The notes under the pieces were generated by a model that had not been told where the DNA came from, did not search any database, and worked only from the letters and a program-made list of their open reading frames with translations. Shown here piece by piece: positions 1,342-55,693 of a DNA stretch of 64,000 bases. Each line of letters opens with the position of its first letter. Position 1 is the stretch's first letter. Source of the stretch: Spizellomyces punctatus DAOM BR117. Its lineage: Eukaryota. The stretch is taken from the NCBI GenBank assembly GCA_000182565.2, contig KQ257461.1; one strand, given 5' to 3'. Both the position numbers and the translations under genes were made by a program.

Positions 1342-4141
1342 ATGAATAGATCGCACGTCCCAACATTTACACAGCCGTCCCAGGATGTTCATGAAGATTC
1401 CCTGCAACCAGTTCACCAAACCAACATTTCGTATGCCCTTAATCTGGACTACTCTTACAGGAACACGAACGATGCAGGTACAGCTCTGTATCTGTGCATT
1501 TGCATATGCTTTCCCTAATCATCCTGTTCGTTACAAAATTCTNNNNNNNNNNNNNNNNNNNNNNNNNNNNNNNNNNNNNNNNNNNNNNNNNNNNNNNNNN
1601 NNNNNNNNNNNNNNNNNNNNNNNNNNNNNNNNNNNNNNNNNNGGCTATTTGCCATGGTTACATATTCATGCTGGTCACGTTATGGATCCAGGGAGGTATG
1701 TCTGCTGCTAATTGTGGCTCTTTAGAGAGCGCACACGAACGGAGAGGATCTCTATGGTGTATTCGAGGACCAGTGGCACAAACGATAAACCCTCTGCAAA
1801 GTATGCCAGGACATGAGCAAGGCATTCTTACGCACACAGCATACGGAGCATCCGACAATACGCGTTATGAGGCGGCACTCCCATCCCCACTAGGCAGTTT
1901 GTCTTGGCTTCAAGATCGAGCCCCGTCTTATATGTCCGCCAATACTCTTCAGTCAAGTCGTCAGCCGATGGAAAGTATTCCGCCCGCGGCAGAAGCGAGA
2001 AACCCTGTATCAGAGGACAAAGCCATTGATGTGACTACTGCTAAAGCATGCGGTAGCTCCCTATTGACTCTGTTACAACTGCGGCCCAACGTTCCATCCA
2101 CAACAAAATTTGCTGTCCTAAAGCTGAGCAACATAGCATGGAATCTCAGCATTTCTGACGTGGTTGCGTATTTTGCACCGTTCAAGGTAGGTTATATGCT
2201 ACCCTCTCATTGGTCGACATCTGCTGAAGTGAATTCATGGCTGCGTAAGGTCCCTGTATCTCACCTATCTCCGCACTATACTCAAGGCGTTCATATTATA
2301 ATGAACCGTGCCACTGGGAAGACCCAAAGCGATTGCTTTGTGGAATTTCCTAGTTATACTGAAGCCCAGCGATCTTTAGATTTGCATGCCCGAGGGATCC
2401 TGAAGGGTCGTATCGTCGTTGCGCAGTGGAGCAGCCAAGCGGAGCTGATGGATGCCTTGTTTCCGCATCGGTCTTCTGGGCTCCAGACTGATACACAGGG
2501 GAATCCGTCCGTTGAGACCTCGGCGCTACAGGGAACGATGGACAAGAGATGCAATGACACCTTCCAATCTCGACGGGCCGTTGGAAGTGGACTTGTGTAC
2601 GGTCAATCATCGTCTTCGCAACTGAAAGAAGGCGTTTATCTGCTACGCGAAGAGATTAATGCTCTGCTGCTTGTTTGCAGAAACTACAAGGTTTGGATGC
2701 AACCTGTCACTTTCATGCCAATGCCTTTATCCACTGATTACAAACCCCATCATCAGCTTCATTTCTCCCGCAAGTGCGCGGAAAGGCCTTTTGAAAATAT
2801 TATCTCAATTATTTGCAAGATACCCTGGCATGAACCACATTTAGTGTCGACATCTCATAGGGACCATGTATTTGAAATGCTCAAACGTATGTACTGCTGC
2901 TTTTTCGTGATGTCTGCGGCAAAGTTCACTCAACGTGTAATCTCGCAAAGTGTCGCTGGAGTCTCTCAGTATTCATCTATCCCGCCACGACCACCATATT
3001 GATGGCAGCTTGATGATGCGGATGGTACGAGCCGGTCTGTGCGTTCCGCTGTTTACAGAGCGACAGAAAGTAACCCTTTTAAACGTGGCTGTAAGGATAT
3101 GGTTGAGAATGTATTATAAACCGAGCAATCTACCTAACTGGCTTACATTCTCCTCAGGGTTTACCATGTCCCAAAGATCTTGCACCATTTGTGTACAATC
3201 CACCACAAGTGCAACCGTCTCGGTCTCCCGATGCGAAGGATCGTGCGAGGTCCGCGACCCCATCAAACCTCGGCGAGTCCTCTTTACAGGATCTATCATC
3301 GACCTCATCCACGTCCACTACCTTTTACAACACGGTATCAACTTTGGAAGAAATGACTTGCCACATCGAAGAACTCACTATGGACGATGAGGTTTGGTAC
3401 CAGTATTGTTCGGTGATTGTGAAGAGAGCGTCTGAAATTGCGTCCAAAATTCAAACAGCCTGCTCAGTCTACTCCTGTCGCCAAGACCTCGAATCAAGGT
3501 GCTGTTCAGAAGACTTTTAGCCAAGCTGTCTCTCGTTCGGCTGATCTCTACCCGTCTCCGCCAGATGCAGATGGTGAGCTCTCACTGCTTGGAGAATATG
3601 TGCCTATGAAGGATAGAACTGACGTCTTGTTGGCTGCCCAGGATCTGGGACATCCCATTGTGTCGCTACTGCGACCCCTAATCCTTTTTCTGAGCCGGAC
3701 CAACGACTTGATGTAGTCACCACTCCTGCCATGACTCTAAGTCTCTATGCTGCCCGCATCCGCATGCTTGAGCAAGCCCTTCGACAAAGTGAAACCCGAT
3801 ATGAAGAGTTACGAAGGCGGCACGAAGCATCTGTCACTCGCAGCCAAGTTGAGCAGCAAGAACTCATCAACGCCAAACTGCGTACCGAAGGTCAATGTCG
3901 GGACCTGGAGAGTTTAGTGGGTAATCTAGAAAAAGCCAACGCGGAACTTGAACGCCGCTGCTCCAAGCTTCAGCAATTGCTCTCAGCGAATTTGAGACAA
4001 GAAGATATTCAAGGAACTCGCAGGAGACATTCTGCTACTCAAAGTACCGGGAACAGCAACTATGAGCGCCAAAGGTCTCAAGTTGGTTATTTGACTGGAA
4101 CTTCCATCACTTCAGAAAGTGTCAAGAGTATTTGGAAGTAA
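1342..4141 (+). CDS. Multi-exon fungal RRM-like (qRRM-type) RNA-binding protein with C-terminal coiled coil; 5' part crosses an assembly gap
   Basis: Spliced reading gives VLKLSNIAWNLSISDVVAYF..GVHIIMNRATGKTQSDCFVEF..GRIVVAQWSSQAELMDALFP (RRM-like), then LHFSRKCAERPFENIISIICKIPW and a heptad-rich tail (3731-4141). The start (ATG 1342) and the end (4141, or about 4318 if gtaatg..cacag is spliced) are uncertain. Confidence 0.75.
1543..1642. other. Assembly gap (100 N)
   Basis: Run of exactly 100 Ns, a typical placeholder for a gap of unknown size. Confidence 0.99.
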
Positions 4142-4648
4142 TGTACATGATCACCTTTGATGGATCTACTTTATCACAGGTCTTGCGTTCGGACACAGCA
4201 AATCTCAGCTTACGACACGATAATTCAGCCTACACAGTTGAAATTGGAAAAGGACACTCCCTATTATCTGCGCCGAACGTGGGTATTACTGTGGAAATTA
4301 CTGCATAATTGCACATGAACGTTATAGATTGTCAAACACGCCAAAATATGCTTGTCATGATGTTTCGCGGGACACTAATATATATTGCAAAGTGAATTTG
4401 AGAGCAATCGAATAATGAGATGTAAAATGTAGATAGACTACGAGCATTGATGCAGAGTTTGTTCCTCCGTCTTGAATTTTCGCCAAATGCAAAAGCTTCC
4501 TATGTGTGCCCTCTGAATATAGATTACAACAATACTTGAGCTCCGTAACTAGTTACGATGGGGAAATTTCATACTACCGATTAATATTTCGACCGTCCAA
4601 GACGAACAAGAGAGCTAAACTACTGTTCGTCCCGCTATCACTGCAGTC

Positions 4649-4964
4649 TATATCCTTTGTAAAGCTAAAGGTCTCGTGTTCATTCCACGAAGGGTGCAGA
4701 GACAGGGGCTATGATGGAGCCAAGATTCGGTCGTGGGAGGAATTCAGCGAATATTGGTCAATATATTACGGTCAAAGACCTACTAAGTGGATAAACTACA
4801 GTTCAACTGCCAACTACTGTCGTCTATCCTATTCCTAGTCTTTTCGGTCGATATCTTCTCTCGCAGACAGGCACCCGGCGTGATCTCTGGGAACCACGAG
4901 CAATAAATCTCTCGTGCTCCTTTCGTGGAATGAACTATACTCTTTGTAAATCTAAAGGTCTCGT
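4649..4964. mobile_element. Putative MITE-like non-autonomous element (4678-4935) with TIRs, flanked by 29-bp direct repeats
   Basis: Left TIR 4678-4698 gttcattccacgaagggtgca versus the reverse complement of 4915-4935, gttcattccacgaaaggagca (19/21, first 14 exact). Direct repeats 4649-4677 and 4936-4964 match at 26/29 without gaps and abut the TIRs exactly. Confidence 0.6.
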
Positions 4965-5205
4965 ATTCATTCGTATTATTGTTGGTTTTTCACTTTTATA
5001 TTTTTTGGTGAATATCCAAGTCCTACTTCCGTATGTCTCGTCCGTTGACAGCGTATAATCGATAGCTAAAGACAATTACAGCTTCCTGTCTTGTGCTCGT
5101 GACAGATCAGGCCTCTCTGAATCCCAGTGCGTACCCTGTTATACCGCCTGTCGTTATCCGTACAGTGTAGTCGCTCTACACTGGTTGACGTTGCTGCCGT
5201 ATGAT

Positions 5206-5229
5206 CCCCACCCCCCCACCCCCCACCCC
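5206..5229 (-). repeat. G-quadruplex-forming motif (G4-T-G6-T-G7-T-G4 on the minus strand)
   Basis: The plus strand has four C-runs (4, 7, 6 and 4 nt) separated by single A residues. Confidence 0.7.
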
Positions 5230-5979
5230 GCCGTTACTAGCTTACTGGGCCTGCCCTTTTATCTCTCTACCTTTGGGCTGTGTTTTTCTCTTTTTCAGCC
5301 GCATTTGCTGAGCAGGTAAGAGCCCAATTTACCTGCAATAATTGCATATTGCGGCAAGGAGTCTTGGGGGGTAAGCTGCTGCGTTGCAAATGTCAAAAGT
5401 CGGCAGTCCCAGCATATCTGCAACATGCGTGATCCGTAACTTGTCGTCTGAACTAATGATTACTGAAATACAAAAGTTCTAGCTATTTAGCCAAACGACG
5501 GGCATTCATGTGTCGCCCAGAGCAGAAACTATTGTCTCTTCAGTTCTCAGTATGTTTTCCCCGCTGGACAAAACATTCTACCACATCCGTTGGTTTCCTT
5601 GTAGAGCACCTGCAACTCATCATGAGGGGATATGCTTCCATGTGAAGGAGCCTATATTTCCATGTTTGTTTTGAATTTACATTGTTTTCTCGGTTAGTAT
5701 TTCATATTCCGGCAGTCATTGCCAACGACATGCGTGGATGGGTATTTCAAGTGTTCCATTTTGAGTATAATGAAATCGTATTACATAATCGACCGATCAA
5801 GTTCCCACGCTCTCGCATCATGTTTCTTACTTTCCTTTTACGCTGCTGACCCGTTGATTGACTGACTTTGCATCGGCAAACTCTAGCGCCGATCATTTAT
5901 TTCTTTTCAGGTGCAGAAGATGCAAAGTTCAAAGCGCTGCTTTCTAAACAAAAACTACCATTGCGACTTGATACTTCAT

Positions 5980-31654: not shown

Positions 31655-33071
31655 CTACCTAGCATACACGGACCCGAACCCAACATAAATGTTTGGGTGC
31701 GAGAACTTGTGGATATTGTCCTCGAGTTCCTTCAGCTGCTGCTCCATGTTGACTTTTCTGTATGTATGTTTCAACAAGAAGCATGTGTTAGCAAAAGTAA
31801 GACTCCAATTTACAGGAAACCCAAAACAAAAACAAAACAAGAACCAACTCTTCAGACTCGCAAGAGAACACACAAACTAGAGTGACAACCCAAAATCCAC
31901 ACACACACACACAGACACATCACATCACATACACACACACACACACACACATACGCACACACACACACACACACACAAGGGAACGGGAGTAGTTATATAC
32001 CTACCTAGCAATCTTTGGCACAGTATCCACCGTCAGACTCAGCTTTTGATAATCGGAATTCAACTTTTGCCAATTCTTTTGTAAACCATCCAAAATCTCC
32101 AATCGCTCTGTTTCGGGTAACCTCACCAACCCCTCCTCTTGTTGAGCACGTTGTTGCCTCTCATTTGCAAGCTGCTCAAGAATCGTTTGGTTTCGAGTCC
32201 GTGTATCCGATTTGGAGTGGGATTGGGCATGGAGGGTTTGCGATGGATGCGGGACGGGGTCATCTTGCCGGAGATACGGTGGGACTTGGCCGTACGTCTT
32301 TTTGGTGAGGTATGAAGCTGGTGGGCTAGGTGGTTTTTTTGCCACTGTTATGCAACGAATGAGAAAAACAGAGGATTTAGTCGTAAAAAACGTGGAGTCT
32401 TTACCAGAGTTGATATTGTCTAGAGCGTTCGTCCGGACAAAGTCTTTTGTGGACGTTGACGGGAGGCGTCCGGGCTCTTTGGGTAAGTCGGCTTTGCGAA
32501 CTGTTCTATCAGGGTGCTGAGGAGGAGCTGTTGCATACAAAGAAAGAAAAAAAGCAAGACGTTAAACGGCTACTACAGTTTTTGCAAAACTATTTTTTTT
32601 AAACTCACCACGTCCAGCTCCATTCTCTCTCTCCCCTTTTTTCAAAAACTCTTTTGGATCCGGTACAGGAACTTTGAGGGGACCCATACTGGCAGCACTC
32701 TTCTTTCCCTTTTTAAACTCTTCGTGAGCCATTCCTGAGAACCTGCTCTTGTACCGCTCGGCCTTTGGAGGCACTGGTTCTTCAACTGGGATCAATTTAT
32801 AAACGCTTTCACTGAACGGATCAGAGGGCACATCTTTTTTGGATGGTTTGACCAGTGCGCTTGGATGAGGGACGGCTGCATCGATCCCTTTTTCACGGAC
32901 GGCGCTGGGCGCTGTGATGGTCACTGCGGCTTTGGTCGTAGCGTCCGATGGGAGCGCTGCGGGACGGGGACCGACGGACGGGCCTGTCATGGCTGCCTCC
33001 GGGTGGTCTACTCGACCTGGTAGAGACGCAGAGGCATGATGAGCAGGCCCCGGACCAGTACTGACAGGCAT
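31655..33071 (-). CDS. ENKUR: Enkurin (axonemal microtubule inner protein)
   Basis: ESVYKLIP..PPKAERYKSRF, SMGPLKVPVPDPKEFLKKGE, KDFVRTNALDNI, YLTKKTYGQVPPYL, LPETERLEILDGLQKNWQKLNSDYQKLSLTVDTVPKIA|RKVNMEQQLKELEDNIHKFSHPNIYV. Confidence 0.93.
31899..31977. repeat. (CA)n microsatellite in the last enkurin intron
   Basis: Interrupted cacacaca tract of about 80 nt. Confidence 0.95.
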
Positions 33072-43479: not shown

Positions 43480-44454
43480 GCACTGTCCAAAATGGAATGC
43501 TATGGCAGGCTCCTTGCGATATCTACAAGACACGATTTTAGATTTAGATAGATCAGATTCGACAAAGCCTTGCTCTGTAGATCTCAGCAGCAAAACCTAT
43601 CAGTTCCTGATTAGCATCGTTACAGTTTGCAAGAGAGCTGTTCAATGTCGCATACCTGCGACAGCTCTGGTCGGAGCCGTCGGAGTCCATCATGTATGAT
43701 GACATAAGCCGCAAAATGGTTCACGTGGAGGGTAGGTTCAGAGAACTCTTATTTCGATCTGCCTTTGGAGGTCGTATCATTGCAATTGCTGTGTCAATCA
43801 TATTGATTTAATCAATGGTTTGTTAGGGTGACATGCAGTAGCGACGATGTAAAGGTTGGATCTAGTTATGCAGATAAGCATTCGTAATTGTTATCGTTAT
43901 TCGCCGCATGGTCTGCGTCCACAAGTACTGGAACTACTCATGCTGCACCACAACATGTGCCTTATGTACCGCTTGAGCTTGGAAATGGGCAGGGAACAAT
44001 AACGCAAGGAATATAATAACATGCAATTCACGAAGCAATGGCTCAAAGATACTAGTAGGAAGGCTGAATCAATTGCATGTACAGTATAGTAACATCTAGG
44101 CGTGGCTTTGTTTGTGGCTTGTCTTTGATTAGTGCGCCACAGTGTTTGGATGCAGCTATTTGAGATTCCGCTGTCTTTACACAATTCCAAGTAATGCTCT
44201 CTAAGCGTCCATATGATCAATTGCGAAAGCAGTTTGTTCAAGGTATGTTTGCACCGCTGTCCCACTTTAGCCTCACCCACCGACATTTCAAATCCCAAAT
44301 AGGGTCGTTACCGGACCTTCTCCGGGACAAGGTGGTGTCGGTCTCAGAGTGGGATCGATCGCAATTGGCAGCTTTAAAGCAGGTAGTAGAGGAGAATGTC
44401 CCTGTTGAGAAGGTCGTTCCCGCGGTTTATGTTGGGAGTGAGGAGGGTGAGTAG
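43480..44454 (+). pseudogene. Possible decayed gene
   Basis: Protein-like frames broken by stops, ending in a clean intron (gtatgt..aaatag) and a terminal exon GSLPDLLRDKVVSVSEWDRSQLAALKQVVEE; no intact upstream model found. Confidence 0.3.
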
Positions 44455-45181
44455 GCCTAGAAACACTCTTTAAATATCTTGGGTCAGGTGAATCGTTGGT
44501 TGGGAAGTTGTTGGGTCAAAATGTTTAGTGCACACTTTTTTTTTTTTTGCAGTCCGGACGTGTCCCGACAATCAGGCTTCTGGACCTTTTCATGGAGTAT
44601 CACTGGAAATTAACAGTCATCTATTATGCGGATTCGTTCATGTAGCTCCTTGTCGCACGCTACATCAAGCAACACCAATTACAATTATGAATGCTCGCCT
44701 GCCGAACTAGATCCAATCATTACATGGCAGCTACTGCATGTCATGGTAACAATGCATTTATCAAATTGCGGCTGCTTCTATTATGGTCGAATTCCTAGAG
44801 CACCCAGAAACGGAAACGGGAAAGCATAGAAAGGGTGTTAGGGTTTACGGTTGTCGGGAGAGAATGGATGGAATGGTATCCTTCACAAATTAAGCTACTT
44901 TATAATTAAGCAGGAATTATGATCGTCTCAAATTCTCATTGCAGCAATGGAGGCTGTTGCTTTACGTGCAATCCGGCCTCGCGATCTGCCATCCATTGTC
45001 GCCTCTTTTCACCTTTTCTGCTTACTCAACCAGATCATTTGTTGAGGGTAAAAATAGTAGCAATGCGTTTTGAAATGAATTTAGTTCCAATTTGATGAAC
45101 GTACGCTCAAGTAGTAAGCGAACAATGAAAATGGCCACACTGACTACGACCAAATAGTTATTTTCTGCCTATTTTGTGTTC

Positions 45182-51722: not shown

Positions 51723-54236
51723 CTACTCCACAGCTGCCGGTAACGCCCCTGCCTGAGCTTCTGCCCTCAATGGTCTGAACATCTCCGCCCTCGGCGTCTG
51801 GTCGTCCGCTTCCACACCCCATTCCTTGGGTGGGGTGGGAAGCGGGAGGTTCCGCGGACGCATCGAAGCCGGAGAAGCCGAGGTGATTAGCGGCGGCTGA
51901 ACGGAGGTCCGAATGCTTTCTTCGGGATGCATCACTCCTTCTCCTACTTGTACCGCGACGTCTGCAGGTGTATGCATGCTTTCTTCTGTGGGTATTCGCC
52001 CGTGTGAGTGTGCCTGTACGGCGGAGTTGATGAGTGGGTGATGGGCACCGGCGGTATTTTCTAACATGTTGCCTGCAACGTGCAAGGCTGTATCTCCAAT
52101 AGATCCATCATGCCGGCCCCCTGTAAGAGCTTCTTCTGTTCGGCGTCCGCTGTGTGGATGATGGGCGCTAGGGGTTCTTCCTAACATGTTGCCTGCAAGG
52201 TTTACTGCTGTATCTCCAACAGATTCATCATGCCGGCCTCCTGTAAGAGCTTCTTCTGTTCGACGGCCGCTGTGTGGATGATGGGCGCTAGCGGTTCTTC
52301 CTAGCATGTCGCCTGCAAGGTTTAATGCTGTATCTCCAACAGATCCATCATGCCGGCCTCCAGTAAGAGCTTCTTCTGTTCGGCGCCCGCTGTGTGGATG
52401 ATGGGCGCTAGCGGTTTTTCCTAGCATGTTGCCTGCAAAATTCAAGGCTGTGTCTCCAGCAGATTCATCATGCAAGCGTCCCGGAACTTCCTCTTCTGTT
52501 CGACGTCGGACAAGTTCAGCAGAAAGTTGTTGTGGCGAACGGAAGATGGGAGCTGGGGGTCCAGCGGGAAGGTACGACCTTAAAAAAGAAATGACCAATC
52601 AAGTTAAAGCTAGAGGTCAAAGTGAACTGGATCTACATCAATACTTACTCAATCTTCCTATTGAGCACCGAAATCCAATCCAACATTTCCTCCTCGCTTG
52701 CGGCCTTCAATTCCACCTCTGATCCACTGTTCCGGAACAGCTTTCCAGTCTTACGCCGATCCATGCTAATTGTAAAGACGTGCTGGTGGAGCTTCCGTTC
52801 GTTGGGGGCAATGTTAATCCGAGGTGAAGCCAGGTTGATACTGAACGGCTTGAAGGGCGTTGGAAGGGGTGTGGATGTCAAAGGCAGGAGTGAGTTGGGT
52901 ATCTGGGATGCCGAAGAGGTCTCCGAAGTGGCCCTTGATCGAATACGCTCGTCTTCATGCATATGATGGGACCCAATATGGACTCCCCCAACACTGGTAG
53001 CCCTCCTCGTAAGTCGACTCAATTTAGTATCAAAACAATGAACCCAACCACTTTCAGTCAGCACTGCCACAACCGGTTTCCAATGTCCTTTTCGGACTGT
53101 TCCAGGACGATACAGTATTCCTTGTTTCTCAATCCGGATCGCACGAAGAGGGTATGGAAAGTCTTCCAACTTCCTTTCCGTTGTGAAAACGGGAGCGGTA
53201 AGAACTTCAAATGTTTCAGAGAAACGGGCAAACGGTCCAAAACAGTCAGTGTTGTTTAAGAGTGACCGCAGCGAAGATCCATGAGTCGCGGCTGCCGAGC
53301 CTTGCATCCCAATCGTGGTGAGGTATTGATCGATGGTTTGGCGGAGAGTATCAAATATCCCAGCATCGATTTGAGCAATCTCTCGATGAAAGTGCAGGAT
53401 ACGTTCTTGAAAAATGTTTTCGCCTTCAATCATTTTACGCAGCTGGGCTTGGATTCGAAGGTAGATTAACCAAGGGTCAACATTGTCTTTGGTGGGAGGA
53501 AGAATTGGCTCAGCAGCCATGACGGTTGGCCCAGTGTGCGAAACGGCCGAAGAAGATGTGCCGGTACGTCTTGACGTGCGATCATGCTTTCCCAAAATAC
53601 CAATCGTGTCATGTCTACTGGTGGTAACGTCCCTAACCAGCTGACCAAAAGTATGCTGATAATGTCGGCGCTGCTCATGAACTTGCTGTTTAAGCGATTT
53701 GAGGCGCCGAATGACCCTCTCGTGAATGTACGTGGCTGTCGCTTTATGCGCTGCAGCCATATCTTGAATCTGGTTCTGGACCGGTTGCATGAGGTTGCTA
53801 GGAAAAACGAATATTTCTTGCATGGCTGCTCCGTCCGGTGCACAGAGCACGTCGTTAAACTTGCTAAACTCGTCAGCGTACGCCGTCTCGAGCTTTCGAA
53901 TGCTCTCAAAGAACCGGATGAGTTGCTACAGGAGCCAATAGGGATTAGACATGAATGTCTTACACCTTTTTGCCTCCCGTCTATCCCACCCCACACAGAA
54001 TGGATTCTTACATTAAATATAACCTTCCACCCTCTAAACCGCTCAAGAACAATTGGCAAACGTTCACATTGCTCTCGGGCGTACGGCCACAGCTCCAAAT
54101 GATCACGGGGTATTTTGCGTCCACTTTTGGCCATCAGTGATTCTAAGCGGGCTGTGGGAAGACTTGCGTGCGTGGCCATTCCCGGTGGCCCCATCGCTGG
54201 TAACGGCGTTTGCCTGCGTAACGGCAGGATCTTCAT
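51723..54236 (-). CDS. BAR-PH protein (Slm1-like architecture) with a C-terminal 40-aa tandem repeat
   Basis: LERFRGWKVIFN|QLIRFFESI.., DPWL, PH motifs KQGILYR..HWKPVVAVLTESGWVHCF..LKAASEEEMLDWISVL; an intron gtaagt..ttaag joins ORF 51723-52598. Confidence 0.82.
52037..52505 (-). repeat. Coding tandem repeat, 120-bp unit, about 4 copies
   Basis: ggatgatgggcgcta recurs at 52156, 52276 and 52396; the unit encodes RRTEEALTGGRHD(G/E)SVGDTALNLAG(N/D)MLGRTASAHHPHSG. Confidence 0.95.
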
Positions 54237-55619: not shown

Positions 55620-55693
55620 CAACTCTTATTATGGCGTTTAGCCACAGATTATGTACAACTCTTATTATGGCGTTTAGCCACAGATTATGTACA
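55620..55693. repeat. Perfect 36-bp tandem duplication
   Basis: caactcttattatggcgtttagccacagattatgta x2. Confidence 0.95.

Follow-up and report, generated by a model that had tools for sequence, protein, structure and literature searches.

Genomic setting of the block

The window, by which we mean the whole stretch of 64,000 nucleotides (64 kb) that was analysed, is nuclear DNA of Spizellomyces punctatus; one of its ORFs is 100% identical to a DAOM BR117 protein (NCBI). Fungal nuclear genes recognized in it by Pfam include a gene with a fungal transcription-factor domain and those for a mitochondrial DNA polymerase exonuclease, galactose-1-phosphate uridylyltransferase, listerin and enkurin, among others. 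The block of 325 nt considered here, positions 4648-4972, lies in an intergenic spacer, where the ORF of the upstream gene ends near 4141 and the next gene starts near 5900.

Fifty-seven ORFs of the window were scanned with Pfam, namely the 12 largest, 42 of the 62 other ORFs of at least 130 aa and three short ones across the element, and none of them gave a match to a transposase, reverse transcriptase or Rep/helicase domain. The block is non-coding, in agreement with what an earlier, sequence-only reading of the window had said of its core: the three ORFs that cross the element have no Pfam match, and no Rfam family was found for the block. ARAGORN detected no tRNA in the block, even at 80% thresholds, which speaks against a tRNA gene or a tRNA-derived SINE. 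Likewise, no tRNA was found by Rfam in a search with 91 nt at E values up to 10, and the would-be anticodon stem is unpaired. By eye, 4674-4698 resembles the T arm and acceptor strand of a tRNA, and the other copies of this stretch, described below, carry the canonical loop A.

The depth of raw RNA reads is 0 from 4702 to 5079 in one RNA run, of which about 6% was read, and the block is without detectable transcription in that portion of the run. The 3' UTR of the upstream gene is covered at an RNA depth of up to about 140x and is ended by A-tailed reads at 4393-4396. These untemplated A tails represent the poly(A) sites of the upstream gene (last ORF ending at 4141), and the RNA coverage drops from about 140x to near 0 over a distance of less than 150 nt. 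In the same spacer, 240 nt downstream of the block, a C-rich tract, CCCCACCCCCCCACCCCCCACCCC, is located at about 5207-5230. An assembled contig covers 4151-4959 without a difference, and a second contig ends at 4412. No joints were reported in the sequencing runs aligned to the region.

Other repeats were seen elsewhere in the window. The arms of a 96-nt inverted repeat (43806-43901 and 44671-44766) are 77% complementary with 769 nt between them; no long flanking direct repeat was seen beside it, and its interior may hold part of a small gene. A 120-bp tandem repeat at 52034-52473 (3.7 copies, 89% matches) lies within a minus-strand ORF (51723-52598) and is probably a repetitive protein segment. 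Meanwhile, a perfect 36-bp repeat of 2.1 copies was located at 55620-55693, a (CA)39 microsatellite at 31898-31977, and an assembly gap of 100 N at 1543-1642, inside a large upstream ORF.

Repeats, predicted hairpins and read depth

The two ends of the block are connected by a direct repeat of 38 nt, in which 4648-4685 and 4935-4972 are identical at 34 of 38 positions at a spacing of 287. The mismatches are at 4653, 4654, 4664 and 4678, and the likeness stops at both sides with no further extension; its 29-nt part recognized by the sequence-only reading, 4649-4677 versus 4936-4964, shows 26 identities. In addition, 4678-4698 and 4915-4935 form an inverted repeat matched at 19 of 21 positions, with the outer 14 nt perfect. 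It reaches about 25 nt if one 1-nt gap is allowed, and the pair just outside it (4677/4936, T/T) is unmatched. With 216 nt between the arms, the segment including the arms measures 258 bp, and the 29-nt direct repeats and the inverted ends adjoin exactly on both sides. The arrangement described by the sequence-only reading, a 258-bp TIR segment exactly abutted by 29-bp direct repeats, is therefore present. The same is true of its remark that the 8 nt after the right repeat resemble the TIR start: ATTCATTC and the start of the left arm, GTTCATTC, agree at 7 of 8 positions, for which the chance is about 4e-4.

Neither repeat is due to chance, and the structure is real and non-random. When up to 3 mismatches are allowed, the 64 kb of the window contain exactly two occurrences of the 21-nt arm and exactly two of a 23-nt stretch of the direct repeat, and for both, two or more occurrences were seen in 0 of 100 dinucleotide shuffles. 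No further element-like sequence was found in the window by blastn (word size 7, 4601-5020 as the query; next best E 0.92). A scan of metagenomes with the TIR pattern of the element gave one match, in a coding region that is rich in GC, looks bacterial and is otherwise unlike the element; this is about what a rough estimate leads one to expect by chance. The junction pattern gave 0 matches in a scan of viral contigs.

The features are collected in Table 1 under the names that they would bear in the interpretation favoured below, which is read on the minus strand. The 3' inverted repeat is placed 30 nt from the 3' terminus at 4648, a terminus placed where the direct repeat stops and where, to the precision of the bins, the excess of reads described below breaks off. 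The shorter copy at 4935-4972 consists of the 30-nt tail preceded by the final 8 nt of the inverted repeat, and adjoins the 5' end of the full unit head-to-tail.

Table 1. Features of the 4648-4972 block, named according to the tentative Helitron2-like interpretation
Feature	Position	Strand	Basis
Complete 3' terminal module (unit U): 3' inverted repeat and 30-nt hairpin tail	4648..4702	minus	Repeat coordinates, read depth
Putative 3' asymmetric (subterminal) inverted repeat; left TIR of the sequence-only reading	4678..4698	minus	19/21 matched, outer 14 perfect
Putative 3' tail with hairpin; left direct repeat of the sequence-only reading	4648..4677	minus	Predicted fold
Non-coding core	4699..4914	minus	No Pfam or Rfam match, no excess DNA reads, no RNA reads
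Putative 5' terminal inverted repeat; right TIR of the sequence-only reading	4915..4935	minus	Repeat alignment
Predicted 5' hairpin CACGAG/CTCGTG	4895..4916	minus	Fold compared with shuffles
Putative 5'-truncated second 3' module; right direct repeat and the 8 nt resembling the TIR start	4935..4972	minus	34/38 to 4648-4685

The whole 325-nt block folds better than 100 of 100 shuffles (z -4.0). A tail hairpin is predicted 6 nt from the terminus, with a 5-bp stem (CCTTT 4654-4658 / AAAGG 4667-4671) and an 8-nt loop, and its stem is only 4 bp in the truncated right copy. In the minimum-energy fold, a second hairpin of 5 bp (TCGTG/CACGA, 4674-4690) involves the 3' inverted repeat. The folding of the 3' module is weak, with z -1.7 on the minus and -1.1 on the plus strand, where 11 and 26 of 200 shuffles, respectively, equal it. 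The predicted 5' hairpin has a 6-bp stem and a 10-nt loop and shares 2 nt with the inner side of the 5' inverted repeat; for 4885-4935 on the minus strand, z is -2.5 and 3 of 200 shuffles fold as well.

Copies of the left part of the block were detected in a ChIP DNA run carrying the same species label. Its raw reads are 38 nt long, and 130 of them fall on 4000-5600, for which the depth was recorded in 30 bins. The depth reaches about 10x (4.33 + 5.80) only at 4648-4701, the bins flanking this stretch having 1.9 and 2.9 and the other bins roughly 1-5x. The over-covered stretch comprises the left repeat and the left inverted end, i.e., the 3' module. At position 4683, T is replaced by A in 14 of the 16 reads, and these 14 begin at 11 different places. 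All of the 14 show at least one further mismatch (the cleanest read has one), and they correspond in number to the class of reads 90-95% alike, which contains exactly 14 reads; no read of the run is only partly aligned. Position 4683 is the only one listed as a consistent difference, without a second one among the reads. No excess of reads was found on the core or on the right end, an absence that carries little weight because the right end differs from the left by about 10% and no read of less than 90% identity was aligned in this run.

We infer that the reads with A at 4683 derive from other genomic places and not from a local allele, and that the homologous stretch extends over at least about 48 nt, lies almost wholly inside 4648-4701 and crosses the junction 4677/4678. 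The junction of repeat and inverted end, that is, the 3' module as one piece, is present elsewhere in the genome. Because every read differs further and yet no second consistent difference is listed, the reads suggest that several diverged copies contribute, although these are 14 short (38-nt) ChIP reads and ChIP enrichment could inflate one or few copies.

Interpretation of the block

The recurrence of the junction bears directly on the sequence-only reading, which had read the 29-bp repeat as a probable long target duplication and the 8 nt beyond it as part of a target mimicking the element end. Since the junction of repeat and inverted end recurs elsewhere, the 29 nt are not locus-specific, and the reads that cross this junction elsewhere imply that the repeat travels with the element end; the first claim is thus contradicted. 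The second is not needed if the right 38 nt are a truncated second copy of the terminal module, which calls for no targeting. A version with a fixed target would need a repeated target whose continuation equals the element end over about 25 nt, and taking 4648-4702 as a single unit is the simpler view. Consequently, a non-autonomous mobile-element origin is retained as the most likely reading, whereas a true target duplication of about 29 bp does not stand up to the check that the sequence-only reading itself had put forward, in which locus-specific flanking repeats would speak for such a duplication and identical ones for a repeat belonging to the element or to a fixed target. Most likely, the block is not a new long-duplication transposon.

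We tentatively interpret the locus, with a confidence that falls slightly short of an even chance, as an old, inactive, non-autonomous member of the Helitron2/Helentron (HINE/DINE-like) rolling-circle elements in minus-strand orientation. In full, the unit would be 287 bp long, from 4935 down to 4648. Its 5' end would be the inverted repeat (G)TTCATTCCACGAAAGGAGCA, which can form a hairpin with the next bases. Towards the 3' end, the inverted partner of this repeat would stop 30 nt short of the terminus and give way to a short tail with a hairpin. Positions 4935-4972 (38 nt) would hold another 3' module, truncated on its 5' side and attached head-to-tail to the 5' end of the full unit. Presumably, the element was mobilized in trans by RepHel, and the extra 38 nt originated either through an overrun past one unit on a circular or tandem donor, or through the landing of a new copy at the end of an older truncated one. 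This interpretation would account without extra assumptions for the 8-nt continuation into inverted-end sequence. Given the divergence of about 10% between the copies and the decay of the hairpin in the truncated one, the element appears to be old and presumably inert.

The geometry is consistent with such an element, one inverted repeat being situated at a terminus (4935/4934) and its partner 30 nt inward from the other end; the first 5' base becomes T only when C4935 is counted with the adjoining tail. On the 3' side the flanking sequence has A as its first base, and GT is all that the two flanks have in common, the true 5' flank being masked by the truncated copy; a T-rich or TT, TTTT^T/C or TNAT^T target, as in described families, was not seen in the flanks. 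No RepHel gene was found in the window among the 57 scanned ORFs. The fit to Helitron2 is modest evidence, one locus having been compared with a template that has several adjustable parts.

Among the other explanations, a local rearrangement without mobility is unlikely; it is akin to the alternative offered by the sequence-only reading, a direct repeat with a local inversion made by template switching, which keeps some probability. According to it, the 55-nt unit (4648-4702) served as the template for a patch of 60-65 nt (4908-4972), which was produced by template switches in one repair or replication event and in which the unit's inner half was copied in inverted orientation ahead of its first 38 nt in direct orientation. 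It fits this explanation that the two pieces of the patch correspond to overlapping stretches of a single template close by and meet with C4935 as their one shared nucleotide, that all three local 8-mers have T at the place where A is found in the reads from elsewhere, and that the direct and inverted copies have diverged to a similar degree (4/38 and 2/21), as is expected for one event. However, three switches would be needed with a microhomology of at most 1-4 nt, and nothing in the explanation requires the copied pieces to end at the limits of a genome-wide repeat unit. Moreover, the differences appear to be on the right copies only, the left copy seemingly differing from the reads of other copies at 4683 alone; such one-sidedness is unexpected because two copies should age equally. 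The model of the sequence-only reading, a cut-and-paste or otherwise site-targeted TIR element at 4678-4935 that duplicated 29 nt (or 38 nt) of a target resembling its own end, is in our judgement quite improbable. Target duplications lie immediately next to the ends of an element, and so do the direct repeats on either side here; the fold of the 325-nt block, better than that of all 100 shuffles, is expected of a TIR element. Nevertheless, reads from elsewhere cross the repeat/TIR junction, so the target itself would have to be a repeat continuing as TIR; in addition, neither the core nor the right junction shows excess coverage, and there is no other copy in the 64-kb window. We know of no eukaryotic transposase family that makes duplications of about 29-38 nt. 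A broader version, in which a chytrid mobile family settles beside or within copies of its own end, with duplication of a target of about 29-38 bp, seems to us just as doubtful as that model. The duplication could arise in it through a long staggered cut, or through a 287-bp circle recombining at an att-like site of 38 bp; to our knowledge, no described eukaryotic transposon superfamily gives insertion at its own end together with a duplication of about 29-38 bp. If a long duplication were real after all, it would point to an undescribed eukaryotic integration mechanism.

That the unit (4648-4702) represents the conserved 3' tail of a LINE, or of a SINE sharing a LINE tail, with truncated copies of 287 nt and 38 nt in tandem, is very unlikely. 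Over-represented termini are typical of 5'-truncated retro-copies, and here only the terminal 55 nt are over-represented and stem-loops are predicted in the tail. On the other hand, neither a poly(A) nor a simple-repeat tail is present at 4648, no tRNA-like head was detected by ARAGORN or Rfam, no reverse-transcriptase ORF was found among the 57 ORFs scanned in the window, and the inverted repeat (14 nt perfect, 21 nt in all) exactly at the other end of the unit is left unexplained. Highly improbable in our view is the integration of a 287-bp circle by a site-specific recombinase, with the 38-nt repeats as an att-like core and CCTTT-N8-AAAGG as a pair of binding sites around the crossover spacer. 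It would suit this idea that an insert as long as one unit lies between direct repeats which themselves contain an inverted motif of the 5-8-5 form, since recombinase core sites such as lox, FRT and att look alike in this respect. Yet the arms of the motif measure no more than 5 bp (4 bp in the right copy), no recombinase was found nearby among the scanned ORFs, and the inverted ends are again left unexplained; nor do we know of miniature recombinase-integrated elements of this kind.

Several known element types were also considered and rejected. An LTR retrotransposon, TRIM or solo LTR does not match, the 38-nt repeats lacking TG...CA and no TGG-type primer-binding site being visible by eye after 4685. 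The split repeats of DIRS/Ngaro elements and the "twin priming" of retro-copies have, as judged by eye, unsuitable orientations and signals. The Fanzor-carrying elements SPu-1, SPu-2 and SPu-3 of the same species were likewise set aside: three words of 11-12 nt from the repeat and TIR are absent from their printed sequences (PMC3627910 supplement 2), a comparison in which words broken by line ends could be missed. The TIRs of these elements measure 33 or 25 bp with a TA duplication, and their printed ends differ from those of the element here (PMC3627910 supplement 2). The 9-mer GTTCA[A/T]TCC (4678-4686) occurs near the 3' ends of SPu-1 and SPu-2 as well (PMC3627910 supplement 2); as a 9-mer common to both with no longer likeness, it is probably a matter of chance.

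If the Helitron2-like interpretation is correct, elements of this type or their relics reach the Chytridiomycota, a phylum reported to have very few DNA transposons (Muszewska et al. 2017, PMC5751038, cited from an excerpt), and the block would be the probable first sign of a Helitron2-type element in a chytrid. No Helitron of Spizellomyces punctatus, or of chytrids in general, is described in the available excerpts of the literature on Spizellomyces and Helitrons. The block would also show how such elements can imitate a "TIR element plus long target duplication", which is a trap for MITE finders. Apart from these two points, the result would amount to routine repeat annotation.

Comparison with known systems

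MITEs of DDE transposons share with the block a small size, non-coding sequence, TIRs (here 19/21) and flanking direct repeats. They differ in the nature of the flanking repeat, which here is 29-38 nt long and not locus-specific, without a duplication of 2-11 bp at the TIR boundaries. Casposons and IS1549-like elements produce a long, locus-specific duplication, and their autonomous copies possess Cas1 or a matching transposase; the duplication here is not locus-specific, as judged from the ChIP reads. Templated insertions and template-switch mutations at quasi-palindromes copy nearby sequence, inverted and direct, into one patch. In comparison with them, the patch here would be about 60 nt, located 210-290 nt from its template, and would require three switches with minimal microhomology.

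The closest parallels are offered by the Helitron2/Helentron group (HINE, DINE-1, FoHeli, and CRe-1 to CRe-3 of Chlamydomonas), whose features are given here from excerpts of the cited papers. In Helitron2, the inverted repeats are 8-15 bp, the 3' one lying 20-30 bp from the 3' end, and the 5' one, separated from the end by 0-2 bp, pairs with bases downstream of it into a hairpin (PMC3627910). Those of the Fusarium FoHeli elements are 12-16 bp and located 20-51 bp from the 3' end (PMC5148889, 2016); within that paper, the distance of the 3' inverted repeat from the terminus is about 20-40 bp in a figure legend and 38-51 bp for FoHeli2/FoHeli1 in the text. For HINE/DINE-1 elements, subTIRs of 12-15 bp are separated from the 5' end by 2-4 nt and from the 3' end by 38-60 bp, a palindrome is found near the 3' end, the last 60 bp define subfamilies, and the elements were formerly mis-annotated as MITEs (Thomas et al. 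2014, PMC4067079). The asymmetric inverted repeats and the 3' hairpin are the same in the block and in this group as far as the excerpts describe it, and a 5' hairpin involving the repeat is common to both. The terminal 55-60 nt of the 3' end are the conserved and over-represented part in the group and appear to be so in the family of the block; non-autonomous Helitron2 families are described as showing "3' overabundance / 5' truncation" (PMC3627910). Truncated and head-to-tail copies occur in the group and would be present in the block as well, and tandem or truncated Helitron copies, circles with joined ends and rolling-circle overrun are treated in the excerpted Fusarium paper (PMC5148889). 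The block departs from the group in showing no T-rich or TT target and no terminal 3' T run in its visible flanks, its inverted repeat is somewhat longer (14 nt perfect, 21-25 nt in all), and its host is a chytrid.

The flanking repeats have a partial counterpart in the one-ended Helitron2 copies of Chlamydomonas, for which the same excerpts give flanking duplications of 7-19 bp and sometimes 44-443 bp (PMC3627910). Both cases would be of the rolling-circle type, with flanking repeats far beyond the length made by DDE transposases. In Chlamydomonas, however, the repeats are described as host target sequence downstream of TTTT, whereas the flanking repeat of the block, because it recurs elsewhere joined to the inverted end, is apparently the tail of the element itself.
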